Counted from the stretch's first letter, positions 8,018 through 34,742 are shown. The stretch: 64,000 nucleotides of DNA from Candidatus Bathyarchaeota archaeon (GCA_963769425.1 CAVYLP010000003.1:256001-320000); one strand, 5' to 3'. Numbers and translations: made by a program. The notes: generated from the sequence alone by a model not told the origin.

Positions 8018-8254
8018 TCGATTCCTAGTGGCAGGTGCAAAAAGTGATGAATTTCCGGGATACCACCCTACTAGGAATCCACACCCAACCAGCCAGTGAG
8101 CCATACCACCCTACTAGGAATCAGATTCCTAGTGGCAGGTATCAGAGGGTCGAGGTGAGCACTCCGCGATTCCACCCTACTAGGTATGGGATTCCTACCC
8201 ACAGGTGCGAGTCATACCATGCTACTAGGAATCCGGTTCCTAGTGGCAGGAATC
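8018..8254. repeat. Array A: 8 copies of a 20-21 bp pseudo-palindrome GATWCC-N8/9-GGWATC
   Basis: Copies start at 8020, 8059, 8102, 8124, 8168, 8190, 8213, 8235, e.g. GATACCaccctactaGGAATC and GATTCCtagtggcaGGTATC. Confidence 0.9.
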
Positions 8255-8487
8255 CACGCGGGGTTAGTTGCCATGAGGAAATTCCACTATTTAATCGCCC
8301 TAAAGGGACACAGGAAGATCCATTCGGGGCTTTCGCACTATCTATTCACTATAGATACACGAGTTCGCCCTGTAATTTTGATTTTTTTCGCAGCTTTTTA
8401 ACCCCCACTCGTCGAGGTCCAGAACAAATAATAATCGGTTAACTGTTGTTAATTAAAATAGAGCTAAAAAGGCTAGCTTTAAGGAAC

Positions 8488-8724
8488 TCAGCCGGATTTC
8501 GATTTGAACATGGTGAAACCGCAGTTTCCGCATGTGTAGCGGTCACCGTGGTCGGCCATGAAGTATCCGCGCCCACACCTGTTGCAGAAGGGCCTCTTCC
8601 TCTCCAACTTACCGTCCTTGATCTCGTACTTCTTGTAGATCGAGTCGGCGCCCTTCTTCGGCTTCTTCTCAGCCGGTTTCTTATCCGCGGGCTTCTTGCC
8701 CTGTGGTGGTGGTGTTTGAGCCAT
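8488..8724 (-). CDS. rps27ae: 30S ribosomal protein S27ae
   Basis: [22 protein letters not shown]. Confidence 0.95.
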
Positions 8725-9068
8725 TACTTCTTCTCCTCCTCAGGCGCAGCGGGGGCGGCGGCGGTGGCGGGCTTCTCCTCGGCCTTCACGGCCTCCTTCC
8801 CCTTGTTGCGGATGATGATATACTTGGGCTCCACTGCCTCCGCCGTCGCCGCGTCGTTATAGACGTGGGCGAGGCCAGTCGTCACCCTTGTACCAGACTT
8901 CGCCTCCAAGACGCGGACGTAGACGTTATCGAGCTCGGTCCTCATTAGGACCGAGATCTCACGCCTGACATCGGCTCTGCTCGGAGTGGAGGCCTCAGTA
9001 ACCTTGAAGGCTAACTCCTTTCTACCAACCACCTTGTTGATCTTGGTGGATGTTAACTCCAGCTTCAC
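8724..9068 (-). CDS. rps24e: 30S ribosomal protein S24e
   Basis: [13 protein letters not shown]; conserved position in the rpoE-spt4-DUF359-S24e-S27ae operon. Confidence 0.92.
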
Positions 9069-9071
9069 TGT

Positions 9072-9557
9072 CTATTTCATCTCCATTCGGTTGAGGAATC
9101 CCCTCGCCCAGTCCCGCCTCTCGTCGGAAACGGTCACTACAACAAGCCCCTCGTGGGGCTGGCCGTAGGCTATCACCGATCCGATAGGCATCTCAGCCAA
9201 CAGCGGGAGGACCAGGAGGTCCTCTTCACCTTCCACGACTACCGCCACCCGCCTTTTAAGCGTTACCGCGGCCCGGAGGACGAGCCAAGCCTCCGCGTTG
9301 ATCGTCGCCGCCTCGTTGGGGACGTGTATCTCCTTCAAACCATGCTCGACCGGCTCGACTACGGCCCTGAGCGTCTTGCCATCAACCACAACGATATCGG
9401 GGAACAGCCCGGCGCAGATGAGGTTGGCCGCGACGAAGTCCCCGACAACTGCGAGGAGCGGTGGCTTTACCTTGAGCTTCTCCTTGAGACGGACGGCTGT
9501 ATCCTTCGGCTCACCTCGGTAAAGTTCGCCGAGGGGCGTCTTCAACTCGATACGCAT
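9072..9557 (-). CDS. GTP-dependent dephospho-CoA kinase (DUF359)
   Basis: VGD, VDGKTLR, VEGEEDLL, YGQP; operon context. Confidence 0.88.
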   Translation of the reverse strand: MRIELKTPLGELYRGEPKDTAVRLKEKLKVKPPLLAVVGDFVAANLICAGLFPDIVVVDGKTLRAVVEPVEHGLKEIHVPNEAATINAEAWLVLRAAVTLKRRVAVVVEGEEDLLVLPLLAEMPIGSVIAYGQPHEGLVVVTVSDERRDWARGFLNRMEMK

Positions 9558-9609
9558 AGATTCGGGTAGAAGCAGAGTCTTGATCTGGGGGAGGCTTGGA
9601 TCCTTGTTC

Positions 9610-9795
9610 TTAGCGTATCTTGAGGGCGTAACGCCCCGCCTCTTTGATCTTCATCTTCTCAGCCAACTGGCTCTTGGATGGGTCGAGTATGATGACAAAT
9701 CCGAGGAAGTCCTCGCTTAGCTCCGAGCCCTTGCAGACAGGGCAGACGTTCTCGTCGGTAATTATCTTACAAGTTCTGCAGGCTTTGAGTGGCAT
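9610..9795 (-). CDS. spt4: Transcription elongation factor Spt4 (RpoE'')
   Basis: KACRTC..CPVC..GRYALKIR. Confidence 0.93.
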   Translation of the reverse strand: MPLKACRTCKIITDENVCPVCKGSELSEDFLGFVIILDPSKSQLAEKMKIKEAGRYALKIR

Positions 9796-10370
9796 TACTT
9801 CTTCTTCTCCTCCTTGGGGGCATCCATCGCTTTGACCTCTGCGTCGATCCAATCGATCTTGCCGAGCATCGGCTGGCGAGCCGTGACACCGATCTTGCCT
9901 GAGCTCCTGCCCTTGGGGAAACTGACGGCGACCATCCTCACCCTGAAGAGGTCACCCCTCTGAATGGTTCGCCCGCTCTCCTTGCCGAGGAGGATGCCCT
10001 GCCTCTCATCGTAGCTGATGAAGTCATCCATCAACTGGCTGACGTGTAGCAGCGCGTCCACCGGCCCGATCCTGAGGAAGGTACCGAAGTCAGCGACCTC
10101 GACCACCTCGCCCTCAACAATCTCTTGTAGCTGTGGGAAGAAGGTCATGATGCTGAAGGTAACCTGATGGTGTGTCCCACCGTCACCTGGAACGATGCGA
10201 CCTATGGGGTTGACCTCGACCTTGATGACCGAGATGACGTAACCGAGGTCCTCGTCGACGAGCCCCTCGTATTTACCGCGTAGCTCCTCGTAAGCTGCGG
10301 CGTCGAGTGGCTGGCCGAACTTGTTTGGACTTATCCTGATGGTGTCCTTAAGGGTGACTAGGTTGAACAT
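9795..10370 (-). CDS. rpoE1: DNA-directed RNA polymerase subunit E' (Rpo7)
   Basis: GRIVPGDGG and S1 domain GPVDALLHVSQ. Confidence 0.95.
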   Translation of the reverse strand: MFNLVTLKDTIRISPNKFGQPLDAAAYEELRGKYEGLVDEDLGYVISVIKVEVNPIGRIVPGDGGTHHQVTFSIMTFFPQLQEIVEGEVVEVADFGTFLRIGPVDALLHVSQLMDDFISYDERQGILLGKESGRTIQRGDLFRVRMVAVSFPKGRSSGKIGVTARQPMLGKIDWIDAEVKAMDAPKEEKKK

Positions 10371-10420
10371 CGCATCGCCTCAATTTAGCCGGGGTTGATT
10401 CATAAAAACGTTCCTGAAGC

Positions 10421-11146
10421 TCACAGTTCTATGAGCACCTCGAAGGACTCCTTGCTGATGATCTCTCCGAGGTCCTTCTTCCACTCGTCGCCGACGGCAA
10501 CTAGGATGTATATCCCCGCGATGTCGGCGCGCTGGTTCCTTACGAGGTCGACGAGCGCCTTCACGGTCTCTCCGCTGCGGACGACGTCGTCGATGATGAG
10601 TATGCTGTCTTTCTTCTTGAGGGAGGCCTTGGGGACGTACATCGTCTTTCTCATCGCCGAGCCCTTGGGGATGAAGGACTCCTCTAGGAAGTCGTTTATC
10701 CCGACCTCTCTGGTCTCTTTCGCGACTAGGAGGTCCACATCAAGGAGATTGGCGACGAGGGTGGAGACGGGTATGCCGTCCACAGCCGCCGTGAGAACCT
10801 TCGTCACGCGGCGCCCCGCGAACTTCTCCATCGCGTAGTTCGCCATGATCTTTAACCAGGTAATCTCCGCGACGAGGGGCGTGTTGTCGAAGTAACCCTC
10901 CTCGTCGAAGTTGATCCTCTTCTTTAGTTCGGCCTTTATGTCCGTTATTTCCATTAGCTTCTCGTATAGGCCCTGGGCCCTGTCGTAGCTCGGGAGGACG
11001 TGCCCCCTCATGTACCTGCTGAGTATTGGCGGGCTGAGGCCGAGGTAGTCGGATAGTTCTTGATATGTGTGACTCTCGCTCGCGACCTTCAGGAGGTCGG
11101 TGATCATCATTCTATATTTTAGTTCCCGTACCCTCGTCTCTGCCAT
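10421..11146 (-). CDS. HTH + phosphoribosyltransferase-domain protein (PurR-like / APRT family)
   Basis: N-terminal HTH LSRYMRGHVLP; PRPP loop ILIIDDVVRSGET. Confidence 0.85.
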   Translation of the reverse strand: MAETRVRELKYRMMITDLLKVASESHTYQELSDYLGLSPPILSRYMRGHVLPSYDRAQGLYEKLMEITDIKAELKKRINFDEEGYFDNTPLVAEITWLKIMANYAMEKFAGRRVTKVLTAAVDGIPVSTLVANLLDVDLLVAKETREVGINDFLEESFIPKGSAMRKTMYVPKASLKKKDSILIIDDVVRSGETVKALVDLVRNQRADIAGIYILVAVGDEWKKDLGEIISKESFEVLIEL

Positions 11147-11170
11147 TCACATCATCCCCAGCTGGCGGAG

Positions 11171-11263
11171 CGGGCCTGAGGGGATTTGAACCCCTGACCA
11201 ACGGCTCTCTTCGACCCTAAGGTCCTAAAAGGCCGACGCTCTTCCTTGCTGAGCTACAGGCCC
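11171..11263 (-). tRNA. tRNA-Lys(TTT) with a 19-nt intron at 37/38 (11207..11225)
   Basis: GGGCCTG/CAGGCCC acceptor stem, GGTTCAAATCC T-arm, BHB motif CTTT-TAG...GAAG-AGA. Confidence 0.93.
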
Positions 11264-11443
11264 ATGGCCCTAAGCGTTAACCCATTAGGACAAACATGGT
11301 ATTTAACTGTTTTTGGTTTTGCTTTAATTGTTTAATATAAATGCACTAATCGGTTAAATTTACACACGGGTGCAAGGAGGGCATAGAAGGGGTACCTCGA
11401 CATACTTATTAGACCGCTCTTGTTTATCCCTCTGTTAATCAGC

Positions 11444-11537
11444 GCGGTCGTAGTCCAGCCTGGTAGGACGCCAGCCCCCCACGAGTGTTTCTCGGGGAAA
11501 GTTGGTGACCCGGGTCCAATTCCCGGCGACCGCACCA
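11444..11537 (+). tRNA. tRNA-Gly(CCC) with an 18-nt intron (11482..11499), encoded CCA, atypical C33 and C55
   Basis: GCGGTCG/CGACCGC acceptor stem, ACCA end, BHB motif CCCC-CAC...GGGG-AAA. Confidence 0.85.
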
Positions 11538-11538
11538 C

Positions 11539-12729
11539 TTACTCGGACCTGAGAGCCTCAACAGGGTTGAGATTCGCGGCCCTCCAGGCGGGGTAGATCC
11601 CGGATAGGGTGGAGGTCAGGACGGCGAATCCTACCACCATCACCCCGATCATGGCAGATGGGACGGCGGTGATCCCGACAATCGAACCTATGGCTCCACT
11701 TAGCCCGAATCCTACGAGCACACCCAGTAGACCGCCTATGAGGCCTGTGAATACTGCCTCGGAGATGAACATCAATAAGACGTGCTTGCTCTTCGCTCCG
11801 ATAGCCTTCATGATACCTATCTCGCGTGTGCGCTCCATGACGCTGATGGTCATGGTGTTAATTATCCCGATGCCCGCGACCACGAGGCTTATGGCGGCTA
11901 TCCCGCCGAGGACTGCTTGAATCGAACCTACGACCTGATCCATCACAGCCTTAGCTGACTCGTAAGTCACCGCGCTGTAGCCCTTGCCCATCTTTGTCTT
12001 GATTGCTGCAGCGGTGGATGCGACGTTTTCAATTGAGTCGGCCTGCGCCATGACGTAAGTGAACTGGTTCCCCGTCTCGTAGAACTGTTGGGCGTCTCTT
12101 AGCGACATGGCAATGGAGTCGTCGAGGTTCACACCGAAACTGGCGCCCGTCTTGGCGAGGATACCCACAACGCGCACCGTCAGGGTCTTGTCCACGTCGT
12201 TCACTCTCGTGTTTAGAGTTATCCTATCACCAATGCCTAGGACGGGTTTTGTCTGGTCCTGCGGTAGAGCGACGTTCGCCCCGATTATCACTACGCCGTT
12301 ATCACTCCTGACGAGCCCTCTCCCATCAGATATTTCGGTATTCTGATTGATCTTCTGGTAATCCTCGGTTATGCCGAAAGTCGAGACGCGGTAAATCTTC
12401 CCTTGAAGCGTGTATGTTGCCATCTTGTTCGCAATAATCGGAGTTGCCGCAATGACGTGTTGTACCTTCTCAATGGTTGTAAGGTCCCTTAACGTTAATG
12501 TGCCGATCGACATAGTCCCCCCGGTGAATCCACCGGGGACTACCATGATGTTTTGAGGGCCAAAGATCTGGAGCTGGCCACTGATGTTATCGCTGAGTCC
12601 TTGGGTTATGGAAACGAGGCCGGTCACAGCCGCGCAGCCGATAAGTATGCCGATCAGGTTCAGAGCGAACCTGAATTTCCTCGACCTGACGCTCTCCCAG
12701 GCCGCGCCGAAGATGTCTCCAATGTTCAA
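11539..12729 (-). CDS. ABC transporter permease (MacB/FtsX type)
   Basis: GIINTMTISVMERTREIGIMKAIGA, PAWRAANLNPVEALR. Confidence 0.93.
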   Translation of the reverse strand: MNIGDIFGAAWESVRSRKFRFALNLIGILIGCAAVTGLVSITQGLSDNISGQLQIFGPQNIMVVPGGFTGGTMSIGTLTLRDLTTIEKVQHVIAATPIIANKMATYTLQGKIYRVSTFGITEDYQKINQNTEISDGRGLVRSDNGVVIIGANVALPQDQTKPVLGIGDRITLNTRVNDVDKTLTVRVVGILAKTGASFGVNLDDSIAMSLRDAQQFYETGNQFTYVMAQADSIENVASTAAAIKTKMGKGYSAVTYESAKAVMDQVVGSIQAVLGGIAAISLVVAGIGIINTMTISVMERTREIGIMKAIGAKSKHVLLMFISEAVFTGLIGGLLGVLVGFGLSGAIGSIVGITAVPSAMIGVMVVGFAVLTSTLSGIYPAWRAANLNPVEALRSE

Positions 12730-12741
12730 GGTTTATTCATC

Positions 12742-14268
12742 TTATTGGAGTCCGAATAGCCTTCTCAGCCAGCCCCATATTCCGCCGTTGTTTGAGGTGG
12801 TCGGGATTACCGTTGATGGGCTAGTGACGGTGAGAGGTAAGCTGATCGTGGCGTTCTGCTGGTTGTTCCTGCTGTCGAGGTACGTGATCCTCAGCTTCAG
12901 GCTATAGTCGCCCGTCGTTGAGCTGTTGCTTATGGCGTACTTCAGCGTGAACGGGACGGGGCTATCCGGGTCTATCGCGCCGATGTACTCGGTGCCGCCG
13001 GCGATCTGCTTAACAGGGCCCTCCGGCAGAACCTGAATCCTCGTGAACTCAACCCTGCCCGTGCCAACCAGCAGCAGGTCCGCCTCAAGCGTTTGAGTGC
13101 TCCCCCTCTCCGCCGTGAGCACAAGGTCCTCCATCAGGGAGAACTGGACGAGGTTCTCGACGGGGACAGTTATCGTCTCCGTTGCTGTGCCCTGAAGGCC
13201 CTTTGCGTCTATGTACTTCACGCTGACCGTTAGCGGGAAGTCACCCGCTGTGGCGGCGCCGCTGAGCAGCAGGATGTACGTGAACTTCGCATTCCCTCCA
13301 ATGGATAGGTCGCCGAGTGATACGGTTGTGGGGTTCAGAGGCGAGATCAGACCCTTGACATCCGGGCTCAGCACGGCCTTCACGTTGTAGACCGCGGCGT
13401 CAGCACAGGATGCCTGCAGGTCAATGCTGAATTGTTCGCCGGGGATGACCTTACTCGGGTTCATGTTCGTTATAGTGATGACTGGGCTCTTCGTCTGGAC
13501 CGCGGTGGTGACTTCCAGTGGGACGCTGAGGGTCTGTTTTGCCTCGATTCCCGAGTCGTTTGTGAACCATGCCTGCGCCGTCAGAGAGTAGGCGCCTATC
13601 GGGGTGTTCTCAAGCGCCTTGATCTTCAACTCATAAGATGTTGATCCACTCGCCTTCAGCTCGGTGAGGTGGTTGTTGATGCCGTCGGTTAAGGTGAGGA
13701 GAGGGCTAGCCGAGGCGAGGGTTATGTCGACATCCTTTACACTAGTGTTTCCCATGTTCTCCACAGTGAGGGTGATCGTGTTCTCCACTCCGGGTGTAAT
13801 CTTGCTCCCAGAGGTTGTTATCCTCAAGGCGGGGAGCGAAGGTTGGTTAACCACGACGGTTAGTGGGACCGTCACGGTCACGATGCCTCTGCCAGCCCGT
13901 AGGTAGCTAAGAGTCATCGTGAGTGGATAGGCCCCAACAGCTACGCTCTGATCGACCATCACGGTAGCTGAGTAACTGGCCGAGGCTCCGATCGCGATCT
14001 TGTTGATGACGTACTGGGATCCATCAAGGATGGATACGCCGGGCGTCGTTGAGCTTATCAGTGCCTCGATCTCGGTGACGTCGAAGTTGCCGCCGTTATA
14101 GAAGGTTATTCCGATGCTTCCCTTGGACCCTGCTGCCAACGAGGTGTTGGTTGTGGTTACCTGGAGGTGGGGGATGTAGTCCTCCGCGTATGTGGTCGCT
14201 ATCTGGCCCGCTAGTAGGCAGGCGAATAGGATCGTTATTAGATACTTTTTTCCGTTCATTTCTATCAC
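12742..14268 (-). CDS. Secreted COG1361 / S-layer-like protein with repeated Ig-like domains
   Basis: Signal peptide, repeated beta-sandwich units (G-x-Y-x-L), C-terminal GGIWGWLRRLFG; located in a MacB-type operon. Confidence 0.75.
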   Translation of the reverse strand: MIEMNGKKYLITILFACLLAGQIATTYAEDYIPHLQVTTTNTSLAAGSKGSIGITFYNGGNFDVTEIEALISSTTPGVSILDGSQYVINKIAIGASASYSATVMVDQSVAVGAYPLTMTLSYLRAGRGIVTVTVPLTVVVNQPSLPALRITTSGSKITPGVENTITLTVENMGNTSVKDVDITLASASPLLTLTDGINNHLTELKASGSTSYELKIKALENTPIGAYSLTAQAWFTNDSGIEAKQTLSVPLEVTTAVQTKSPVITITNMNPSKVIPGEQFSIDLQASCADAAVYNVKAVLSPDVKGLISPLNPTTVSLGDLSIGGNAKFTYILLLSGAATAGDFPLTVSVKYIDAKGLQGTATETITVPVENLVQFSLMEDLVLTAERGSTQTLEADLLLVGTGRVEFTRIQVLPEGPVKQIAGGTEYIGAIDPDSPVPFTLKYAISNSSTTGDYSLKLRITYLDSRNNQQNATISLPLTVTSPSTVIPTTSNNGGIWGWLRRLFGLQ

Positions 14269-14954
14269 TTGAACCTCTTCTCTCCCGCGATCTCCCCGTC
14301 CCGGATCTCTACGAGCCGGTCGGTGGCCTGGGCCACGTTGGGATCGTGGGTGATGAGTACGAAAGTCTTGCCCTGCTCCTGGTTTAGGTGGCGGAGCAGA
14401 CCCATGATCTCCTGACCGGTTTTGGAGTCTAGGTTACCGGTCAGCTCGTCGCATAGGAAGAGTGGTGGGTCATTCGCGAGGGCTCTCGCTATCGCAACTC
14501 TTTGCTGCTCTCCTCCGCTGAGCTGGTTGGGCCTGTGGTCGATCCTGTCGCCGAGCCCAACTGATTCGAGGAGTTTCTTCGCCCTCTCCTCCCTCTGCTT
14601 GTGCGGGGCACCGCTTATAGAAAGTGGGAGCTCCACGTTGTGGAGGGCGTCCATTCTCTGGATGAGGTTGAACTGCTGGAAGATGAAGCCGATCTCCTTG
14701 TTTCTGAGGTCGGCGAGCCCGTTGTCGTTCAACGTCGATATATCTATCCCGTTTATGAACACCTGGCCGGAGGTTGGGCGGTCGAGGGCTCCGAGCATGT
14801 TGAGTAGAGTGGACTTCCCGCTACCGGAGGGGCCCATGATGGCCATGAACTCCCCCTTCTCGATCTTGATGTTGATGTTCTTTAGCACTATAAGTGGGTG
14901 ACCACCCTGAAGATACTCCTTCACTAAGTCACGTGTCTCTATGACGAGTGTCAA
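14265..14954 (-). CDS. ABC transporter ATP-binding protein (LolD/MacB type)
   Basis: [20 protein letters not shown]. Confidence 0.95.
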
Positions 14955-14956
14955 GA

Positions 14957-15496
14957 CTATGCCTCCAGCTCTGATATGGATTTGTCAAGGTCCTCGAGGC
15001 GCTGTGACATCTTCTTGCGCATCCCCTTCAGGAATAGGAGTCGTGTATCCTTGTCCACGCTCTCGTCGAAGAATCCGATGATGTTTCCGAACATATTAGT
15101 GTCGTCGCCTGCCATCCATGAGAATGATGAAATAATTTTCTTTTTTAACTCAGGAGAAATCCACTTGATGAGCACAGTGATGAATCTGGCGCTGAACCGT
15201 GCGCTGCTCTCCTGGTGTGAGCCTATCTGCTCGAGGAATTTTCGGCCATTCTCGGTTATCTGGTAGAAGTCCACGCCGTCGCGCACAAGTAGCTCAATGA
15301 GGCCTCTTCTCTCGAGACTCTTGAGCGCTGGGTATAGAGTCCCTGTCTTGGGCTCCCAGACTCCTTCGAACGCTTCCTTTATGGACTTGAGCATCTCATA
15401 GCCGTACTTCGGTGAGGCCTCCAGCTGTATGAGTAGCAGGAATTGTAGTGGGCTGATCCTTGGGGGCGTCGGCATAGCGTTTCGGAGGGGGGACAA
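14957..15496 (-). CDS. PadR-family transcriptional regulator
   Basis: YGYEMLK..GTLYPALKSLE..YQITENG. Confidence 0.9.
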   Translation of the reverse strand: MSPLRNAMPTPPRISPLQFLLLIQLEASPKYGYEMLKSIKEAFEGVWEPKTGTLYPALKSLERRGLIELLVRDGVDFYQITENGRKFLEQIGSHQESSARFSARFITVLIKWISPELKKKIISSFSWMAGDDTNMFGNIIGFFDESVDKDTRLLFLKGMRKKMSQRLEDLDKSISELEA

Positions 15497-15530
15497 TAGG
15501 TTGACCTCTACCTAGTTGATTTTCTACTAG
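15497..15530. promoter_or_regulatory. Two overlapping imperfect inverted repeats, candidate PadR operators
   Basis: TAGGTTGA-cc-TCTACCTA (15497..15514) and CTAGTTGA-ttt-TCTACTAG (15512..15530), between a TATA-like TTTTTAA and the padR start. Confidence 0.45.
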
Positions 15531-15703
15531 GGGGCTGGGGCATCTTAAAAACATTATGGACATACGTTTTGACCCCTCTAAACCAAATTAACTAAGCGAA
15601 TTCAACGGATTAATTTGGCATCGTCTTCAAACGAGCGAGTATGTGAGTGCTTGCTGAGCGTGTGTGCTTATCTACGGGTGCCCTACTCAGTAATGCGGAC
15701 ATT

Positions 15704-16952: not shown

Positions 16953-17251
16953 TTGGTCTTGGGGGGGAGGGCGTAGACCCTCAGGTTGTTCGTGTGCGCA
17001 ACGAGTTTAATTGTCCCCTTCTGGTCGAGCTCCTCCAGCATCTTTTTAGCGACGCTGACCTTAAGGTTGAACTGACTCGCAATGGCTGGGGGCGTGATGA
17101 CCTTCATCTTCTTCATCGCGTCCATAAGTTCAGGGCTGTTAGAGTGGATGGCGTCGACGGAGCCAATGAGCTTCTCCTTCTTCTTCTCCTCCTTCGGAGC
17201 CTCGGTGTCCTGCGTCTTCTCCATCTTCTTCAGGCTTTTCTTTCCGGGCAT
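16949..17251 (-). CDS. rps25e: 30S ribosomal protein S25e
   Basis: KVITPPAIASQFNLKVSVAKKMLEEL. Confidence 0.88.
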   Translation of the reverse strand: MPGKKSLKKMEKTQDTEAPKEEKKKEKLIGSVDAIHSNSPELMDAMKKMKVITPPAIASQFNLKVSVAKKMLEELDQKGTIKLVAHTNNLRVYALPPKTN

Positions 17252-24207: not shown

Positions 24208-24233
24208 CCCCGCTTTTCAGGGATTTTTTATAA

Positions 24234-26596: not shown

Positions 26597-26618
26597 TTAG
26601 GCCGCCCCCTTTTCTATC

Positions 26619-27896
26619 TTACCCAAGCTCCTCGCCCATGACCTCGACGGCGTGGTCGAGCTCCTTCGTCGTGATGACGAGCGGCGGCTGGAACCTCATC
26701 ACGTTCGCCTTGACTCCTCCGGTGCCGACGAGGACGCCCTTCTTGCGCATCCCCTCCTTGAGTTTGTTCGTCTCCTCGGCTGCTGGGGCCTTCGTCTTCC
26801 TGTCCTTGACGAGCTCGACGCCAACCATGAGCCCCTTGCCCCTGACGTCGCCGATGAGCGAGTGCTTCTCCATCAGCTCCCTGAACCTCTTCGTGAGGTA
26901 CTCGCCCTTCTTGGCGCTGCCCTCGACGAGTTTCTCCTCCTTGAATATCTCGAGGTTCGCTATCGCAGCGGCACAGCAGACAGGGTTCCCGCCGAATGTG
27001 GAGAGGTGGTCACCGGGCTGAAGGGAATCACCCACATCACTCCTCGCGATGCAGGCGCTCAGCGGGAAACCCGCTGCTATGCCCTTCCCCATAGTCAGAA
27101 TATCGGGCTTCACATCATAGTGCTCGATGCCGAACATCTTCCCCGTGCGCCCGTAGCCGCTCTGAACCTCGTCGACGATGAGCAGGCTCCCGTGTGTGTC
27201 GAGTATCTTCTTCAGAATCGGGAAATACTCCTTCGGCGGTACGATGATACCGCCCTCACCCATTATGGGCTCCGCGATCAGCGCCGCCACGTTGTCGCTG
27301 CTGTGGTAGTTGATTATGTCCTCGAGCCTCCGTGCGCAGAGCACGCCACAGCTCGGGTACTCCTTCTCGAATGGGCACCGGTAGCAGTAGGCCGCCGTGT
27401 TGAAGCTCACCCCGCTGAGGTACGGGCCCATGTCGTAGCGCCTCCGCTTCGACTGACCCGTGATGCTCAGCGTCCCAACTGTACGCCCGTGGAAGCTGCA
27501 CTCCAGCGCGACCATCTCCTGCTTCTTCGTGAACTTCTTCGCCAGCTTCACCGCCGTCTCGTTCGCCTCAGCGCCACTGTTGCCGAAGAAGGTCTTCACC
27601 AGCCCCTTCGGGCTGATCTCCGCAAGCCTCTCCGCCAGCTCCGTCACCACGGGGCTGTGGTAGACGTACGGGCCATAGTGGATCAGCTTCCCCGCTTGGT
27701 CCTGCACCGCCTTCACAACCTTCGGCGGGCAGTGGCCGGCGTTGACGACGCTTATTCCCGCGAAGCAGTCGAGGTACTCCTTACCCTCCATGTCCACGAG
27801 GGTGGCGCCGTGCCCCCCCACAACAGCAATAGGCTCAAGCTTCGTGAAGCTGAGAATTCTGTACTTCTCGTCCTTTGAGAATACGTCGCTCGACAT
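26619..27896 (-). CDS. Class III PLP-dependent aminotransferase (GABA / beta-alanine type)
   Basis: NSGAEANE, FHGRT, DEVQSGYGRTG, MGKG, TFGGNP. Confidence 0.93.
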   Translation of the reverse strand: MSSDVFSKDEKYRILSFTKLEPIAVVGGHGATLVDMEGKEYLDCFAGISVVNAGHCPPKVVKAVQDQAGKLIHYGPYVYHSPVVTELAERLAEISPKGLVKTFFGNSGAEANETAVKLAKKFTKKQEMVALECSFHGRTVGTLSITGQSKRRRYDMGPYLSGVSFNTAAYCYRCPFEKEYPSCGVLCARRLEDIINYHSSDNVAALIAEPIMGEGGIIVPPKEYFPILKKILDTHGSLLIVDEVQSGYGRTGKMFGIEHYDVKPDILTMGKGIAAGFPLSACIARSDVGDSLQPGDHLSTFGGNPVCCAAAIANLEIFKEEKLVEGSAKKGEYLTKRFRELMEKHSLIGDVRGKGLMVGVELVKDRKTKAPAAEETNKLKEGMRKKGVLVGTGGVKANVMRFQPPLVITTKELDHAVEVMGEELG

Positions 27897-27998
27897 GACG
27901 AATCAAGAATAGTATAGCACTGGCGATAAAAAGGCTGAGACTGGCTACTGCCCGGTGAGGCGGCGGATAATGATGACTAGTCAAGATACGGCCCGCAT

Positions 27999-28274
27999 TT
28001 AGACCCCTTGCTCGATTAACTGCCTAAGCGCGGCAACCTCGCCCTTCAACTCGCTAAGTTCCGCGTCCCTCAATAATGGGGTAGCTACGCCGACAGCCGA
28101 CACGATAACACGGCCCAAACCCATTTTCTCAGTATTCGCGCTATTCTTCAGATACAACTTTGTGAATGCTATATGGCAAACCTCATCAAGATAAAGCAAT
28201 AATGACGCCCTATCAAGACTCGGCTTATCACGCAACTTCTCAAGGAATACCTTGGGCTTTTCAACCGCAACCAA
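27999..28274 (-). CDS. Hypothetical protein with a C-terminal coiled coil
   Basis: 91-aa ORF ending ELSELKGEVAALRQLIE. Confidence 0.5.
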   Translation of the reverse strand: MVAVEKPKVFLEKLRDKPSLDRASLLLYLDEVCHIAFTKLYLKNSANTEKMGLGRVIVSAVGVATPLLRDAELSELKGEVAALRQLIEQGV

Positions 28275-28373
28275 CTCAGTAAAATTTACAGGCGGAAATA
28301 CCTTACATATTTAGATGTGTCGATGCATGGCGGCCAGGCGTTGCCTCCCCGCGTTAGGATGTAAGTGATAGAA

Positions 28374-28739
28374 CTATGGGATATGCAATGTTTGAATCCT
28401 ATTATGTTTCTTTATCTCATCCTGTGTTTTGTTTTCTTTATCTGCTTTTTTTTGGCAATCATCTTCGTAGAGATATGCTCCTAAAATATTCACTGATTTG
28501 TATTTCACCCCATTCTTGTTAAGCTCATCTTGTTTCTTATTTCTGAATTCTCTTATTGCTCTATCAGTGTATTTCGCGTCTTCCGGTTTAGTGCGGAATA
28601 GAACCAATTTTATTTCAATATACTCGCATTCTGTGATAGATTCCTCAATTGGTTTATCTTGGTAAATGATTTTATAGGGTATCCAATATTTGAATAGTTC
28701 ACCCTCTAAAATGTTATCCGATGTTCTCTTTCCACTCAT
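28374..28739 (-). CDS. Hypothetical protein
   Basis: 121-aa ORF in AT-rich DNA. Confidence 0.55.
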   Translation of the reverse strand: MSGKRTSDNILEGELFKYWIPYKIIYQDKPIEESITECEYIEIKLVLFRTKPEDAKYTDRAIREFRNKKQDELNKNGVKYKSVNILGAYLYEDDCQKKADKENKTQDEIKKHNRIQTLHIP

Positions 28740-28828
28740 CTCAGGTCGATTAAGGTTTATCAGTCAATGGAGATTAAATTTTCTGTTAGGCGTGTTTAAT
28801 CTCAAATTTTCCATCCGTGGGCGTAAAT

Positions 28829-29053
28829 TCAAGAAAAGGGATTCCAACTTTTCTTCTCTTTACATCTATGATTTTCAGGTATATGGTGCGAAGAACACAA
28901 CACTTTACCGCATTTATGACACTTGTAGGCATTCTCAGATTTAGTTTGCATAAACCGTTTACCACAAAAACTACATCTAAGATAATGGTCACCCTTGATG
29001 GTATTCGACGTATTTGATTTACTAGTTTTTTTAAACCAATTTAGCGGATTCAT
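28829..29053 (-). CDS. AN1-type zinc finger protein
   Basis: CSFC..CHKCGKVLCSSHHIPENHRC matches the AN1 Cys/His pattern. Confidence 0.8.
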   Translation of the reverse strand: MNPLNWFKKTSKSNTSNTIKGDHYLRCSFCGKRFMQTKSENAYKCHKCGKVLCSSHHIPENHRCKEKKSWNPFS

Positions 29054-29068
29054 ATCCCCGCCACAAAA

Positions 29069-29626
29069 CGAGAACTGTCAATTTAATATTTGAAACCTTG
29101 GCGAGCGAGCGCACCCGATCCTCATCATGATAGTCTATTAATAAATTTTTAATATAAATGGAGTTCTAAATAAAAAAAGAGGATAGTATTGAATCTTAAT
29201 TCTATTATTTTTCCGACTGTTATCGTAGTTATATGTGTTGCCCTCCACGAATTAGGTCATTTTACAATGGCTAAATACTTTAAAAGATCAGCATGGTTTA
29301 GAGTAGGAAAAGTAAAAGGTATCCCTGCCATCATCACGTCTCATAAAAGAGAATTTGAGATTCATACTTATGTAGATTTGAAAAGGGCATTTAAAGAAGA
29401 GATTAAAATAACTCAAGCAGGTCTTCTAAGTGTAGTTTTACCACTATTCTTAATTTGTCTTTATCCCGCATTCTGGCAATTCTTTTTTATTGTCATCTTA
29501 CTTTTTATGATTTATACTATTTGGGAAATAGAATTTATAATTAATATCGAAGTCGAAAAAATTGAGAAATATAGTCTTTTCTGAATATTTGCATTAAGGC
29601 GAGAACTGTAAATTTAATATTTGAAA
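29069..29626 (+). repeat. 27-bp direct repeat pair (29069..29095 and 29600..29626)
   Basis: CGAGAACTGT(C/A)AATTTAATATTTGAAA, one mismatch. Confidence 0.85.
29189..29584 (+). CDS. Small M50-like membrane zinc-peptidase-type protein
   Basis: TM segment followed by HELGH; later AG plus TM segments. Confidence 0.6.
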   Translation: MNLNSIIFPTVIVVICVALHELGHFTMAKYFKRSAWFRVGKVKGIPAIITSHKREFEIHTYVDLKRAFKEEIKITQAGLLSVVLPLFLICLYPAFWQFFFIVILLFMIYTIWEIEFIINIEVEKIEKYSLF

Positions 29627-29640
29627 TTTAGTACATATTG

Positions 29641-30177
29641 TTAAGCGAATAGTAAGGAAGGGTAGAAATAATAACTCCAATAGTTTATGCCAATTAAAAT
29701 AATGCTTAATATAATTAACATATAGAATGGTTTATGATCATTAAATATTCTAGCCATATAGTTTCTCCATCGCATTTTGAGTTCTGGTTTATTCTTATAT
29801 TTCCCAGTTCTTTGAGAAAACTCAGAGGCCGCTCTTTTTAAAAGATATAGTTGACTAAAATCGTAATTATCTGAATATTTTCCTTTTTTGCTCTCCTCTT
29901 TATTCGCTTCTATAAATCCTTCCCCAGTATATGTTTTAACATACATAACTGCCTCAATAAGGATTGAATAGTATCCTGCTCTGAGTAAAAAATAAGTCAT
30001 ACTTAAAAGAGACATCAATATAAACACAAAGAAGTTAAAATGAAAAGTGCTTATTATATCCCGCGCACCTAAAAGGGCTATTACTGTAGCTACCAAATAG
30101 CCAATATGAGCATGACTTTTTTGAGTAAACAAATTAATTAAAGTTGATCGAGTATTTTCTAATTCGTCCGCTACCAT
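29641..30177 (-). CDS. Hypothetical membrane protein
   Basis: 178 aa, three hydrophobic segments. Confidence 0.6.
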   Translation of the reverse strand: MVADELENTRSTLINLFTQKSHAHIGYLVATVIALLGARDIISTFHFNFFVFILMSLLSMTYFLLRAGYYSILIEAVMYVKTYTGEGFIEANKEESKKGKYSDNYDFSQLYLLKRAASEFSQRTGKYKNKPELKMRWRNYMARIFNDHKPFYMLIILSIILIGINYWSYYFYPSLLFA

Positions 30178-30365
30178 AATGTTTCAAATACAAGTTAATT
30201 ATTAAAAATTATCGGGCATCGGGGTCGAGATATAACATCTCCCAAAGAGTGGCCCCGGCGTCCTCCATTTACTAAAAATGATGCGCGCGCGCCGAGGTGG
30301 CAGCGGCTCTCTGATACAACTCGATCGAGGAGAGTTCCGGGTGGGTGCTCATGAAACTAGGGGGC

Positions 30366-31160
30366 TCACGGCAGCGGTTGGAGCTCGCTCGGGAGTGGCT
30401 CGTGCTCCACCCAGGCCCTGATCATGGCGGCGAAGAGGTCGGGCTTCTCCATCCCCCAGTTGTGCCCGACGCCGGGGGCGACGACGCAGGGCACACCGGG
30501 GTGCTCCCCCCGAATCATGCGCGCCGACTTACTGATCAGCCCCGACTCCATCTCCCCGCAGACGACCAGCAAGCCGGACGCATCGGCTATGCTCGGCAGG
30601 GGGTAGGTCATGCTCTCCACGATCACCTGGGTGTAGAAGTCTGGGGTCATGAGCCTAGTGTCCGCCCTGAACTCGGCCTCGTACTCATCCGGGACGCTGA
30701 GCTGCCTCATGTTGGCGTGCACCATGAAGCCGGTGTTCTGGATGGGGGAGTACAGGAGGATTACCAGCTTCAGTAGGGGAGCCATGAGCCTTACGCTGCC
30801 GCTCGGCGACGTGTTCGTTCCGCTGACGATAACCCTGTCCATTAGCTCAGGGCACGTGCTCAGCAGCTGCAATGCGACCTGGCCGCCCAGGGATAGACCA
30901 ACGACGTGGACACGACCTATGGGGACGATTCCCCTGATTAGATTCGCGACCTCATCGGACGCCTTACTTATACTGATTGGGCCGTCAGCCGGGCTCAGCC
31001 CGTGCCCGGGCAGGTCCGGGACTATGCAGCGGTACCCGGGGAGCCTCTGGACCTGGGGGAGCCACGACCAGCCACTCATGCCACCCCCTGGGATGAGAAC
31101 GATCACCGGCGCATCCGAGGGGCCAGAATCCAAGTAATGTAGCAAGGAAACGCCCATCAC
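30366..31160 (-). CDS. Alpha/beta hydrolase
   Basis: DLPGHG, GLSLGG nucleophile elbow, GVGHNW. Confidence 0.9.
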   Translation of the reverse strand: MMGVSLLHYLDSGPSDAPVIVLIPGGGMSGWSWLPQVQRLPGYRCIVPDLPGHGLSPADGPISISKASDEVANLIRGIVPIGRVHVVGLSLGGQVALQLLSTCPELMDRVIVSGTNTSPSGSVRLMAPLLKLVILLYSPIQNTGFMVHANMRQLSVPDEYEAEFRADTRLMTPDFYTQVIVESMTYPLPSIADASGLLVVCGEMESGLISKSARMIRGEHPGVPCVVAPGVGHNWGMEKPDLFAAMIRAWVEHEPLPSELQPLP

Positions 31161-31164
31161 CCCT

Positions 31165-32085
31165 TTATTTTGGGCCAGATGACTTCGCAGCCTCCTCTTT
31201 GAGCTTCCACTTCGTGTACTCCATGAGGCCGATTATATTTGGGATGGCGGTCCTGCGCCTGCTGTCGTCTTCATCGATGCTGAGGCGGAGGATGGGGTCC
31301 TGCTCCTTTAGTAAGTCCCAGACCCCGTTCAGGTCCATCCCCTCTTTCACGCCACGCTCAACGATCTCGGCCCAAGTCTGCAACTCCCCCCTGTAGAACC
31401 TGAGCTTCTTCACCGCATCGTAGGCGTAGCCGAAGTGGCTGTAGCAGACTATCTCGGGACGGAGGTCGATGAGCTTGTCGAGGGTCTCGATGGCTTTGTC
31501 GGTGTTGAAGGGGGGTGGCGTTATTGGGAAGTTGTTCCCACTCCTCTTGTTGAAGCTCCCCCCGCAGTCCCCAAGGATTATTATCTTGTAGTCGGGCTCC
31601 CAGAAGCTCTGCCCGTGGCTCGCGTGCCCCGGCGTCCAGAGAACCTTGAGTGTCGCCCCCTGTAGATCGAGGACCTCCCCGTCCTTCGACTCCTGGATCT
31701 TCATCGGGTTCAGCCCCTTAACTTCCCCGTACTTCTCGTAGGCGGGGCCGAAGAACTGCTTCGCGGAGGCAGCGAGTCGACTAGGGTCGACTAGGTGCTC
31801 CACCGCCTTCGGGTGGGCGTAGACGTCGGCCTCGGGGTGTGCCTCTATGAGCTTCCACGCGCCACCGCCGTGGTCGAGGTGGATGTGGGTGAGCCCAACA
31901 TAGCGTAGTTGCCTTATCCCCAGCTCGCGAAGCCCCTCGATGGCGCCGGGTATCTGGGTCGTCGGTCCAGGGTCGATGAGCATAGGCTCCTCCCCCTTCA
32001 CCACGTATGTCCCCAGCACCCCCTGGGCACCGTGGTATGGTGAGTCGATGAGGTAGACGGGGCCTAGAATCTGCTGGGTGAGCAT
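31165..32085 (-). CDS. MBL-fold metallohydrolase
   Basis: THIHLDHGGG, TPGHA, GD, SHFG. Confidence 0.9.
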   Translation of the reverse strand: MLTQQILGPVYLIDSPYHGAQGVLGTYVVKGEEPMLIDPGPTTQIPGAIEGLRELGIRQLRYVGLTHIHLDHGGGAWKLIEAHPEADVYAHPKAVEHLVDPSRLAASAKQFFGPAYEKYGEVKGLNPMKIQESKDGEVLDLQGATLKVLWTPGHASHGQSFWEPDYKIIILGDCGGSFNKRSGNNFPITPPPFNTDKAIETLDKLIDLRPEIVCYSHFGYAYDAVKKLRFYRGELQTWAEIVERGVKEGMDLNGVWDLLKEQDPILRLSIDEDDSRRRTAIPNIIGLMEYTKWKLKEEAAKSSGPK

Positions 32086-32110
32086 ACTTCACCCATGCCT
32101 CGTCGCGTTT

Positions 32111-32695
32111 TTAATCCCTTCGAGTGTTGGACCAGGCGAAGGAGTTGACTATGGCGTTTAGGACGATGCTTGCGCCGATTATAATTATGAAGCCAGGGAG
32201 CAGGGCGGAGCCACTTATGGACCCCTGCCCGTATAGCATGATCAAGTATGCTATGGCGAAGTTACCGAGGGCGCTGACCATGTTGCCGATTCCCCTCATC
32301 ACCCGCCCGGAGGCCATCCTTAGCCCACCCTCGAGTATCCCCCAGGCGCCCATGATCACGAAGAAGAGGAAGATGGGCTGCGCCAGGATCAGTGGGAGCA
32401 TGGTAGGGCCCGCGGTCCAGGTGCGGAACCAGGCAACGATCTCGTCCCAGACCCACGGGTACTGGAGGTACACCCACGCGATGGCAATGAGGAAGACGCC
32501 GAACCCGACCCCGTTGAGGTAGTCGGGGCCGCGGTCGAGCCTCTCTACGCGATCCATGCGTCTCTCCCACCTGCGCTCCCACCGGCCCTCGAATGGCGGG
32601 GTGGGGGGAACAGGCTCACCCATCTTGTGCCCGCACCTATCACAGAAAGCGGCGTCGTCGGGAAGCTCCTTACCACACTTCGGGCAGTAGATCAT
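32111..32695 (-). CDS. Zinc-ribbon domain membrane protein
   Basis: YCPKCG..FCDRCG followed by four TM segments. Confidence 0.8.
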   Translation of the reverse strand: MIYCPKCGKELPDDAAFCDRCGHKMGEPVPPTPPFEGRWERRWERRMDRVERLDRGPDYLNGVGFGVFLIAIAWVYLQYPWVWDEIVAWFRTWTAGPTMLPLILAQPIFLFFVIMGAWGILEGGLRMASGRVMRGIGNMVSALGNFAIAYLIMLYGQGSISGSALLPGFIIIIGASIVLNAIVNSFAWSNTRRD

Positions 32696-32796
32696 GCCAA
32701 CCACTGAGATGCGAGGGTTTAGGGAGAGATATAAGGATAGGGAAAACCGTGCCAACCCATTTTAACCCGGCAAACCCACTAACCCCCTGAACAAAG

Positions 32797-33741
32797 ATGC
32801 GCGTAGCCGTCACAGGGGGAGCGGGATACATAGGCTCCACGCTGATAAGGAATCTACTCGCCGAGAGGCACAGTGTCGCCTCCTTAGACAATCAAGCGAA
32901 GGGGGACTACTGCCACCTACGCGACCTTAACGCAAAGAGCCTCACCTTAATCGAGGGGGATATAAGGAACGCCGGTGACCTCGACACGATCCTCAAAGGG
33001 GCCGACGCGGTGGTCCACATGGCGGCACTCTCCGACCTCGACGTCTGCAACGAAGACCCCGAGGAAGCGGTCTCTGTCAACATCTATGGCACCCACAAGG
33101 TGCTAGAAGCCGCCGAGCGAAACGGGGTTCGGAGGCTCATCTTCTGTAGCAGCGCGGCCATCTACGGCGTCCCCTCGAGCCTGCCCGTCACCGAGAGGCA
33201 CGCCCTCCACCCCCTCAACCTCTACGGCGTCACAAAGCTCGCGGGGGAGAAGCTCATCGACGCCCACCACGTGAACCATGGCCTTGAGACCGTCAACCTG
33301 AGGTTCGGAAACGTCTACGGCGTCGGACTCTACACGAGCTGGGTCGGCGTCATCCCCAAGTTCGTCGCCCTCGGCCTGGAGGGAAAGCCGCTCACAGTAT
33401 ACGGGGACGGCGAGAGCACCCGCGACTTCGTCCACGTCGAGGACATATCCAGGGCTATAACGTTGGGCCTGACGAAAGAGGGCATACGCAACGAGACCTT
33501 CAATATCGGCAGCGAGACCACTACGGTGAACAAGATAGCGAGCCTCGTCGCCTCGGAGATCGAGAAGGCCACTGGGAAGCGCCCAGAGGTCACCCACCTC
33601 CCCCCGCGACCCGGGGAGACCAAGGAGTTCAGCTACAACACATCCAAGATAGAGAGAGCCTTAGGATTCAAGCCCAAATGGAGACTCAGGGACGGTGTCA
33701 GGCAGATAATCGAGTACCGGTTGAAGAACCAGAAGCAGTGA
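32797..33741 (+). CDS. NAD-dependent epimerase/dehydratase (GalE-like)
   Basis: TGGAGYIG, YGVTK, RFGNVYG, RDFVHV. Confidence 0.92.
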   Translation: MRVAVTGGAGYIGSTLIRNLLAERHSVASLDNQAKGDYCHLRDLNAKSLTLIEGDIRNAGDLDTILKGADAVVHMAALSDLDVCNEDPEEAVSVNIYGTHKVLEAAERNGVRRLIFCSSAAIYGVPSSLPVTERHALHPLNLYGVTKLAGEKLIDAHHVNHGLETVNLRFGNVYGVGLYTSWVGVIPKFVALGLEGKPLTVYGDGESTRDFVHVEDISRAITLGLTKEGIRNETFNIGSETTTVNKIASLVASEIEKATGKRPEVTHLPPRPGETKEFSYNTSKIERALGFKPKWRLRDGVRQIIEYRLKNQKQ

Positions 33742-33750
33742 CGGCGGGGA

Positions 33751-33981
33751 CTACTCGAGGACCACCATCGTCAGAGTTGACCTGACGTGGTTGAGGCGCC
33801 TAACCTTGCTCGTTATGACGTCCTTGATCTCCTGCATCGTGGGGGCTTCCAGACGGACGACGAAGTCGTAGACCCCATAGACGCCATATACCTCCTTGAC
33901 CTCGGGTATCTCCTTCAGAGCCTTGCTGACATCGGTCCCCTCACCGAGATCAGTGTTGATCAAGACAAATGCAACGCTCAT
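33751..33981 (-). CDS. Stand-alone Lrp/AsnC ligand-binding domain protein
   Basis: AFVLIN..VYGVYD..STLTMVV. Confidence 0.88.
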   Translation of the reverse strand: MSVAFVLINTDLGEGTDVSKALKEIPEVKEVYGVYGVYDFVVRLEAPTMQEIKDVITSKVRRLNHVRSTLTMVVLE

Positions 33982-34388
33982 GGATGAACCTCAAATGATC
34001 CCTCAACGGGAACTGATTTAACATTTTCTAGGGTTGAGACGTGCGGGAACATATTGTAAATACAGTCAGGCTATGATATTGCCATGTTCATGTTTCTAAC
34101 GATATAAAAGTAAGTCAAGACCATCAATCATCCAAAGCACCCTGAACCTAGACCCAATCCGACTGAATTTCCATCAGCCTTCTCCGGTAAGGTTGGTAAG
34201 TATGAATCGGCGCGTTTTTCAAGTCTCCCCCATGATGGTAGCATAGTATAAGCGTTTTACAGAATAGCTTAATGACTCCTCACCGGTCCTTTGCGATGAT
34301 TCATCTGAGATTGAGTTCACCCGTATGGGTATCGACTGGAGAAGTGGAGGTTCGTTGGGTGGAGTAACATGTTTGCTGGTTGGTCGCG

Positions 34389-34742
34389 TATGCCTCGCTG
34401 GTAGGAATAAGGAAAAACATCACTTTTTGCACCTGCCACTAGGAATCGAGACTCGTTACGCTAACCAACAGTTGGTCTGTGGTACACAGTAAGGGGGTAC
34501 AACGGTACCCGGTAGGAGGGTACTTGGTACCATGTAGGAGGGCACCGACGGTACCCAGTAGGGTGGTACCATGGTACCCTGTAGCGTGGAACCGGCGCAC
34601 GGGATCTGTGTAACATGGTACCATGTAGCAGGGAACTCGATACCACGTAGTATGGTATATGGTACCCTGTAGGGTGGTACGGGGGACCCATTAGGGGGGT
34701 ATAAGGTTTTTTCCACGTCTCGGTACCATGTAGCAGGGTACA
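34389..34742. repeat. Array B: about 12 copies of a 20-21 bp motif, mostly GGTACC-nnGTAGnnn-GGTACN
   Basis: Copies start at 34389, 34428, 34481, 34504, 34526, 34550, 34573, 34617, 34639, 34661, 34683, 34722. Confidence 0.92.

Follow-up and report, generated by a model that had tools for sequence, protein, structure and literature searches.

Several described systems resemble parts of the locus analysed here. The BOX elements of pneumococci are modular, MITE-like intergenic repeats with a boxA-boxB(n)-boxC organisation. Plasmids and viruses carry iteron, operator or centromere-like arrays, such as 22-bp iterons and repeats of the parC/parS type, and invertible segments and shufflons are driven by Hin/Gin-type recombinases or by integrases. 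REP sequences are described, in parts of PMC3733652, as extragenic palindromes that contain GTAG and carry it as a terminal tag. Little has been described of the mobile DNA of Bathyarchaeia, an abundant and uncultured group, and listings of the open-access literature contained no paper on repeat families or MITEs in it. Here we analysed a stretch of 64,000 nucleotides (the window; GCA_963769425.1 CAVYLP010000003.1:256001-320000) from a Bathyarchaeia genome (G000; 2.55 Mb, 6 contigs, 91% complete), in which an initial annotation had pointed to two distant copies of a 32-mer in inverted orientation as possible inversion sites. We conclude that these 32-mers are likely the best-conserved module of a dispersed, modular repeat family specific to this lineage, with operator-like units and a probable origin in the control region of a two-gene cassette (R-S), and that they did not serve inversion.

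The inverted repeat itself is real and exact. Copy 1 occupies 8018-8049 on the plus strand and copy 2 occupies 34418-34449 on the minus strand, 26.4 kb away; allowing up to three mismatches adds no further match in the window, and none arises in 100 dinucleotide-preserving shuffles. As had been proposed, each copy consists of a single 17-nt array unit (8020-8036 in copy 1) followed by a tail containing A5/T5 (A5-N6), a block common to all subfamilies described below. The next unit had been placed 39 bp away in both copies: a unit-like sequence is present at both alike, but the distance is only approximate, with its start some 39-43 nt away from that of the 32-mer. The 32-mer is also specially conserved, as claimed, with a mean pairwise identity among 10 genomic copies of 0.89, against 0.28 for the 32 nt that precede it and 0.63 for the 32 nt that follow. 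The sole Rfam match at gathering threshold across the whole window is a tRNA at 11171-11263.

Across the genome, three sites match the 32-mer exactly; allowing up to 6 mismatches gives 10 copies, and an 11th differs by a 1-nt deletion. Self-BLAST of the genome placed 42 related loci of 56-796 bp in one cluster, which contains all copies of the 32-mer and is spread fairly evenly across all six contigs. These 11 near-identical copies and 42 loci support what had been offered only as an alternative, that the 32-mer is the core of a dispersed element family. All 42 loci lie between ORFs of at least 90 aa, with 14 overlapping only short ORFs in or across arrays; flanking genes are, by manual count, roughly 13 convergent, 9 divergent and 20 tandem, with no evident bias, and two loci are within 1 kb of any of the 42 tRNA genes, about chance level by our own estimate. 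Repeats of 1.28 kb and 2 kb, considered as insertion sequences, were rejected as paralogous metabolic genes. The near-exact copies have unique upstream flanks and downstream sequences that form three subfamilies, and copies of the family are mosaics of modules without fixed element ends. Units follow the pattern T[TA]CC, 8 nt with a GTAG/CTAG core, and GG[TA]A; their arms differ among arrays (TTCC/GGAA, GGTACC, GATCC), while the core is kept.

The family appears to be confined to one lineage. The search of the genome and its relatives that the initial annotation had recommended found the 32-mer multi-copy in G000 and a 27-mer in 1 of the 41 genomes searched, namely G000, although 17 congeners were among them. 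Most of the relatives are fragmented MAGs, whose assemblies may lack repeats. The unit pattern has 42 matches in G000 and one in the 40 other genomes, with none for the reversed control in G000, and 21-23-mers had no matches in genome, metagenome and viral contig collections. Where G000 has locus C1:184585, the orthologous site in a JGI contig (L101) is occupied by another module of the family. Each 32-mer copy in the window lies in DNA missing from congeners. The spacer between the Lrp and thiolase genes measures 1217 bp in G000 as against 171-205 bp in 13 congeners, and alignment with seven congener spacers of 185-189 bp delimits the extra DNA to 34076-35108 (about 1.03 kb, boundaries within about 10 bp). 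At the DUF1805/S27ae junction, array A has no counterpart in the 11 congener spacers compared.

Array A (8020-8254) comprises eight units, four forward (family D2) and four reverse-type (inside the 46-nt family D1), with inverted families I1-I6; one pair is separated and three abutting pairs form long imperfect palindromes, the abutting reverse and forward units being 84-93% complementary. It belongs to a 264-bp subfamily 1 member (8019-8282, plus strand) consisting of the 32-mer, array A and a remnant that by eye resembles the start of S (ATG at 8273); this member is 93.6% identical across 264 bp to C3:378738-378999 and was also aligned with three other subfamily 1 copies. Copy 2 and its downstream module form a subfamily 3 member (34206-34449, minus strand), 94% identical over 242 bp to C3:176588-176827, whose 32-mer carries the 1-nt deletion. 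In array B (34497-34745, minus strand), 6-7 direct units with GGTACC arms, spanning 34497-34741, mostly follow one another at 22-24 bp; from start to start the intervals are 22-24 or 44-47 bp, with a single interval of 61 bp. Spacings of 22, 24, 23, 44 and 44 bp match the helical-turn spacing of an iteron or operator array, and 22-23 bp spacing is also present at other family loci. Its closing unit is followed by GGTATAAGG and a T6 tract (34698-34714 on the plus strand). Array A folds as RNA with z-scores of -4.3 (plus strand) and -3.1 (minus strand), and folding on both strands is expected because the DNA is palindromic. Arrays A and B are both strongly structured on either strand, so folding cannot tell RNA from DNA palindromes.

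The 32-mer seems to be derived from the intergenic spacer of the patchily distributed R-S cassette. R is a protein of 564 aa with an ABC_tran match of 46 bits and weak GNAT matches, and would be an ABC-type ATPase that also has a GNAT-like domain and a C-terminal tail. S, of about 85 aa and predicted to be all-helical, is found in 12 of 41 genomes, in multiple copies in some. It had no match at E<=0.01 in Pfam, PHROGs, PADLOC or NCBIfam (the weak matches were Terminase_7 at E 0.05 and PHROGs at E ~0.1) and fell only into unnamed clusters in the ESM Atlas; its AlphaFold model has three helices (pLDDT 78), for which Foldseek found no match in the PDB at E<=0.001 and no solved DNA-binding fold. 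G000 matches only residues 480-562 of R, in five places that are all family loci. Full-length R is absent from the G000 assembly (91% complete), and hence nothing in that assembly obviously acts on the repeats. Arrays at C4:352, C6:641, C6:494 and C1:235 lie between an R-tail remnant and an S gene or S remnant, and the congener G002 has two 32-mer homologues, which precede their respective S genes by about 70 nt. By search, an R-tail is directly upstream of 1 of the 11 near-exact copies (C3:176588); a second (C3:378969) was recognised by eye only, and the diverged copy at C4:352 also has one. At the remaining copies, including both in the window, homology begins at the 32-mer or runs into another array. 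Units occur within 150 nt upstream of S at only 3 of 16 S loci outside G000, one of the three inside the R coding sequence, and in the control within 150 nt upstream of 51 of 2547 G000 ORFs. By their position, S and the R tail are candidate binders of the units.

A second structural feature surrounds copy 2. An 824-bp segment (34127-34950) that includes copy 2 and array B is reversed in contigs from two further metagenome runs, with joints at 34126/34950 and 34127/35099 in run X1 (two contigs) and at 34128/34948 in run X3 (one contig), the sides being 127-138 nt. Inverted repeats at the ends of this segment do not exceed the chance level: the best local score is 16, and shuffled sequences average 16.5 and reach 25. 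Depth across 34536-34659 is 0 in runs X1, X3 and X5 and 0.57 in X2, and no RNA sequencing data carrying the region were among the matches listed.

The initial annotation had proposed that the 32-mers were crossover sites for, or the scar of, an inversion of 8050-34417 (26.4 kb). A perfect repeat at both ends and a geometry in which arrays A and B would become neighbours afterwards are what such an event calls for, but the inversion is refuted by gene order, and we regard it as highly improbable that the pair had this role. In congener G016, 22 of 32 window ORFs were found, all in the same order and relative strand, and in G015, 27 of 32 were found, all collinear in mirrored orientation; the junctions at which broken synteny was to be sought are conserved, with DUF1805/S27ae adjacent in 13 of 14 congener loci and Lrp/thiolase likewise in 13 of 14. 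One pair among 11 copies of the 32-mer is nothing special, and the loose ends found next to copy 2 in X3 and X5 do not match the reverse-complemented flank of copy 1. Consistent with the earlier observation that the window lacks a recombinase gene, a Pfam scan of its 76 ORFs found neither recombinase nor transposase; the genome has no serine recombinase (Resolvase), and its single tyrosine recombinase (Phage_integrase) is at C4:282254, on another contig than the window and distant from every family locus. The inverted pair reflects no more than the opposite orientation of two family members, which occupy different spacers 26.4 kb from each other. Least probable of all is an assembly chimera at one copy or at the point where the 32-mer meets array B. 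Among the matches listed, no contig bridges 34449 into array B and none bridges 34126/34127 in the G000 orientation. However, independent X1 and X5 contigs cover 34174-34449 with few differences, the same 32-mer and GGTACC-array architecture recurs at C4:177874-178240 (78% identical over 391 bp), and the window contains no N.

How the family spread is a separate question. The elements are small, non-coding, dispersed between genes and missing at orthologous sites of congeners, and the genome has six DDE_Tnp_1 matches, as would be expected of a classical MITE family that depends on a DDE transposase supplied in trans from another part of the genome. We consider this unlikely. The initial annotation took many copies with target-site duplications as the sign of a MITE. 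The many copies were found (11 of the 32-mer, 42 loci), but neither target-site duplications nor terminal inverted repeats were: none of the former is visible at 10 left and 4 right flanks, comparison with empty sites of the Lrp-thiolase spacer gave only a short ambiguous CAGG repeat, and the four aligned subfamily 1 copies start and end with a unit in the same, direct orientation. A BLAST search of the genome with the surroundings of the six DDE_Tnp_1 matches retrieved none of the 42 loci, and the mosaic copies are not one element with fixed ends. Short, clustered, partly alternating palindromes that contain GTAG and are species-specific would also suit REP/BIME-like sequences made by a RAYT (an IS200/IS605-type Y1 transposase), or PATE-like derivatives of TnpB. 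This we hold to be very unlikely, since the genome (91% complete) has no match to Y1_Tnp (PF01797) or TnpB (Cas12f1-like_TNB), whereas the same searches matched in 6/14 and 8/14 control genomes, respectively; moreover, GTAG/CTAG is at the centre of the unit rather than a terminal tag, and BIMEs are not, to our knowledge, typically built as long direct arrays that repeat every 22 bp or so. IS91 Y2_Tnp also had no match in the genome, but its control likewise matched nowhere, so this absence carries no information. The fairly even distribution over six contigs, the strong conservation of the 32-mer across subfamilies and the spacing of about 22 bp in array B would fit chromosomal sites that benefit the host, such as platforms bound by a nucleoid, segregation or regulatory protein. 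In contrast, the 27-mer is absent from 40 related genomes, orthologous spacers of congeners work without arrays, copies carry R and S pseudogene remnants, and gene orientation around the loci has no evident bias; this explanation is about as improbable as a classical MITE. Taken together, the features of the family make recombination or some other unit-directed mechanism a better candidate than DDE transposition of the cut-and-paste type.

We therefore return to an origin in the R-S control region as the preferred reading. The 32-mer would correspond to the first tens of bases past the R stop codon, a unit followed by an A-rich/T5 tract, roughly 70-100 nt upstream of S, and the T5 tracts on both its strands could stop archaeal transcription. 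Units are often about 22 bp apart, or two helical turns, and this geometry suggests sites for a dimeric DNA-binding protein, such that the units are putative operators or iterons. In G000 the region may then have been amplified, shuffled and mostly left without intact R or S. A bolder possibility, doubtful as it stands, is that this is a new archaeal non-autonomous element, in which amplified operator or iteron modules of a selfish R-S cassette spread and flip by unit-directed recombination without terminal inverted repeats or target duplications, with the 32-mer as the shared recognition or junction site for module exchange and the 824-bp flip as one visible act. If so, the flip between Lrp and thiolase possibly switches transcription into the flanking genes.

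The nearly closed G000 assembly thus reveals a lineage-specific burst of modular, palindrome-rich repeats that the fragmented assemblies of relatives would hide, and whose probable source is an uncharacterised two-gene cassette. Should the units bind protein, the family would be a natural set of operator arrays with two candidate binders. The differing orientation of the 824-bp element, which lies between divergent genes, is a hint of structural switching in archaeal intergenic spacers. We note that a distant perfect inverted repeat should first be counted genome-wide.

Compared with known systems, the 824-bp piece resembles invertible segments in being reversed in two other metagenome runs, but its ends (34126/34127 and 34950/34951) are not at the 32-mer and lack inverted repeats, and serine recombinases are absent from the genome, as are recombinases of any kind from the window. 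The likeness to REP/BIME sequences, as far as these are covered in parts of PMC3733652, lies in imperfect GTAG palindromes of about 17-20 nt that cluster in spacers, sometimes alternate and are species-specific; the differences are that G000 has no RAYT, that GTAG is central and that arms vary between arrays with the core kept. As in iteron or operator arrays, there are direct repeats about two helical turns apart and palindromic pairs, which in the more complete cassettes adjoin an ATPase gene and a small gene; unlike such arrays, they occur at 42 chromosomal loci, mostly without the genes, and the S model matches no solved fold. Like BOX elements, the repeats are short, non-coding, intergenic, hairpin-rich and lineage-specific, with dozens of copies and modules of variable internal repeat number. 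They differ from BOX in their archaeal host and in that no terminal inverted repeats or target-site duplications were found, and further in that copies of the family keep remnants of R and S and that their units are often about 22 bp apart.

The 32-bp sequence (hereafter the 32-mer) that the initial annotation described as an exact inverted repeat is real, with copy 1 at 8018-8049 on the forward strand and copy 2 at 34418-34449 on the reverse strand, and no match with three or fewer mismatches was found in the shuffled window. It is made up of one 17-nt array unit (8020-8036) and then an A5 tract, which in some copies is directly followed by a T5 tract. Array A, beside copy 1 (8020-8254), has four forward and four reverse-type units, with three abutting pairs forming long imperfect palindromes. 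Array B, beside copy 2 (34497-34741), has six to seven direct units with GGTACC arms, the unit starts lying mostly 22-24 or 44-47 bp apart and in one case 61 bp. The 76 window ORFs in our Pfam scan are ordinary metabolic and information-processing genes, including those for DUF1805, S27ae, S24e, Spt4, RpoE, IleRS, an Lrp-type ligand-binding domain, thiolase, ETF and DNA ligase; none encodes a recombinase, as had been stated.

The favoured interpretation of this pair had been a 26-kb inversion of 8050-34417 between the two 32-mers, and this is refuted by gene order in related genomes. In a search with the DUF1805 protein, S27ae-S24e-DUF359 came next in 13 of 14 congener loci, the fourteenth being cut by a contig end, and thiolase was the divergent neighbour of Lrp in 13 of the best 14 Lrp loci. 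Four relatives (G016, G015, G014 and G004) have DUF1805 and Lrp together on one contig, with strand shared and 20-22.5 kb between them. The comparison took in 32 window ORFs from positions 4810 to 39774: 22 were found in G016, all with order and strands kept, and 27 in G015, all collinear in mirrored orientation. Inverting 8050-34417 would have brought Lrp next to DUF1805 and onto the opposite strand, and relative to its kin this lineage has undergone no such inversion. The alternative offered at the same time, that the 32-mer is the core of a dispersed element family, was instead borne out. The source genome (2.55 Mb in six contigs, C1 to C6, with the window at C3:256001-320000), a Bathyarchaeia MAG to judge from the relatives of its ligase, holds three exact copies, the third at C4:10103-10134, eight copies at three or fewer mismatches and ten at six or fewer, and an eleventh with a 1-nt deletion at C3:176588. 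The 5' flank differs in each copy and the 3' flank sorts into subfamilies, the three exact copies representing three different ones; mean pairwise identity is 0.89 within the 32-mer, compared with 0.28 over the preceding 32 nt and 0.63 over the following 32 nt.

Both window arrays fall in a single connected cluster of 42 loci of 56-796 bp in the genome self-BLAST. Every locus is placed between ORFs of 90 aa or longer; 14 loci overlap only short ORFs that are contained in the arrays or run across them. Each locus is a mosaic of modules, a module being a tandem run of units at about 22-bp spacing. The unit reads T[TA]CC, then an 8-nt stretch with GTAG/CTAG at its core, then GG[TA]A. The arms vary by array (TTCC/GGAA, GGTACC or GATCC), and runs often end in a unit, then GGTATAACG, then a T tract. 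A second, unrelated repeat family, outside the window, forms a 16-locus self-BLAST cluster; 14 of its loci are about 300-750 bp and each match about 13 others (for example C3:349307-349826, C6:355966-356712 and C1:74138-74538), the other two being short pieces. It carries a palindromic TATA-like motif, GCTATATATAGC, and a repeated TTCAATGG/TTGAAGG, and may represent either a family of non-coding RNA genes or a further MITE.

Both copies of the 32-mer in the window sit in extra DNA, and the family elements are missing from the orthologous sites of congeners. The Lrp-thiolase spacer is 1217 bp here as against 171-205 bp in 13 congeners, and in an alignment with seven of these the additional DNA, about 1.03 kb, spans roughly 34076-35108. 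No array of this kind was present in the 11 congener spacers printed for the copy 1 junction, where the window has a 264-bp element (8019-8282) that shares 93.6% identity with C3:378738-378999. The 27-mer core matched only the source genome in a search of 41 genomes that included 17 congeners, and the unit pattern matched 42 times in that genome, once in the other 40 and, as a reversed control in the source genome, not at all. Cores of 21-23 nt gave zero matches across genome_contigs, metagenome_contigs and viral_contigs. The unit-pair pattern matched one JGI contig (L101), whose flank is 89% identical to C1:185047-185704; at this orthologous site it carries a different family module, 91% identical to C3:227249 and C6:762699. 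Contigs of four public metagenome runs aligned over 32800-36500 revealed a local rearrangement. One contig from run X1 passes from 33817-34126 into the reverse complement of 34950-34814, and a second has the reverse complement of 34252-34127, 149 unaligned letters and then 35099-36500. Run X3, from another study, has the first joint again (34128|34948), and X5 repeats break points at 34126-34128 and 35099-35105. The X1 and X3 joints therefore place the 824-bp piece 34127-34950, with copy 2 and array B, in the opposite orientation in related populations, which shows that family elements are structurally dynamic. The ends of this piece are not at the 32-mer, no inverted repeat beyond chance was found at them in the source genome, and the flip gives the 26-kb model no support.

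Several array ends resemble the start of a small gene, S, which has no family in Pfam, PHROG, PADLOC or NCBIfam and is present in 12 of the 41 genomes, multi-copy in some. Longer versions lie at C4:351845-352123 (92 aa), C2:94954-95193 and C3:87254-87514, and a truncated copy at C6:641229-641360. At the C4:352 locus, S is preceded at a distance of about 95 nt by a diverged 32-mer, which comes directly after a short ORF with a '...QSK.Y.YW...' tail that also precedes arrays at C6:641, C3:176, C6:494 and C1:235. In relatives the tail forms the C-terminal end of R, a protein of 564 aa (L132:1298-2992) that has an ABC ATPase domain (46 bits) and matches GNAT weakly; matches in the source genome are confined to residues 480-562 of R and lie at five places, all family loci. 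R adjoins S without an array between them in G006, and in G002:C47 the R-S spacer holds a 32-mer homologue and two units. Just two such homologues occur in G002, each shortly upstream of an S match. On these grounds we take the 32-mer to be the portion nearest R of a putative R-S control region, which in the source genome would have been amplified and shuffled with its genes mostly lost. The R-tail codons (K-A-Y-L-Y-W) are themselves similar to the array unit, so a duplication of the R 3' end may have given rise to the arrays. In relatives the R-S pair is accompanied by an HTH_45 winged-helix gene and small ORFs of unknown family (L132, which is G018:C130, 590-3585; L130, which is G002:C47, 1-7900). 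The G002 pair borders a stretch of about 6 kb, upstream of R, whose ORFs lack Pfam matches; this stretch would fit a putative mobile island.

Two-turn spacing and palindromes suggest that the units are putative protein-binding sites. The predicted model of S, with three helices (pLDDT 78) and no PDB match, does not support this reading. The A5/T5 tracts are putative terminator or promoter elements, and a GAAAAACGTTAT-type motif may have a promoter role. Neither terminal inverted repeats nor target duplications were visible in the family copies. The source genome lacks a Y1 transposase, TnpB and a serine recombinase; its single tyrosine recombinase is on a contig other than that of the window. 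When the sequences surrounding its six DDE transposase matches were compared with the genome by BLAST, no family locus was hit.

Other features of this DNA were also noted. A low-GC island at 27999-30300 (35% G+C over 28001-30000 versus about 58% around it) has five ORFs of 84-178 aa without a Pfam match, and those at 27999-28274, 28374-28739, 29189-29584 and 29641-30177 have no counterpart in the syntenic regions of G016 and G015; the island is probably recently acquired DNA. Two 94-nt tRNA calls on opposite strands about 180 bp apart, 11170-11263 (Rfam-confirmed at 58 bits, anticodon unnamed by ARAGORN) and tRNA-Val at 11444-11537 (called by ARAGORN only), are probably archaeal tRNAs with introns. 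A tandem set of three M20-family peptidase paralogues occupies 46671-50223, the middle one shorter (276 aa), and M20-family repeats of about 1.06-1.34 kb form a cluster of seven loci elsewhere in the genome, three of them grouped at C6:892359-899901. C3:51000-52075 and C6:1003708-1004783 are inverted, 100% identical over 1076 bp and beside an IS4/IS5-type transposase gene, the result of very recent duplication or of a join made in assembly.

The repeats described here are dispersed, lineage-specific and modular, lie between long ORFs and carry R and S remnants. They are a variant of the kinds of intergenic repeat known in prokaryotes, with REP/BIME-like elements and modular MITE-like elements as the nearest counterparts, and their link to an uncharacterised ATPase/small-protein cassette is unusual.
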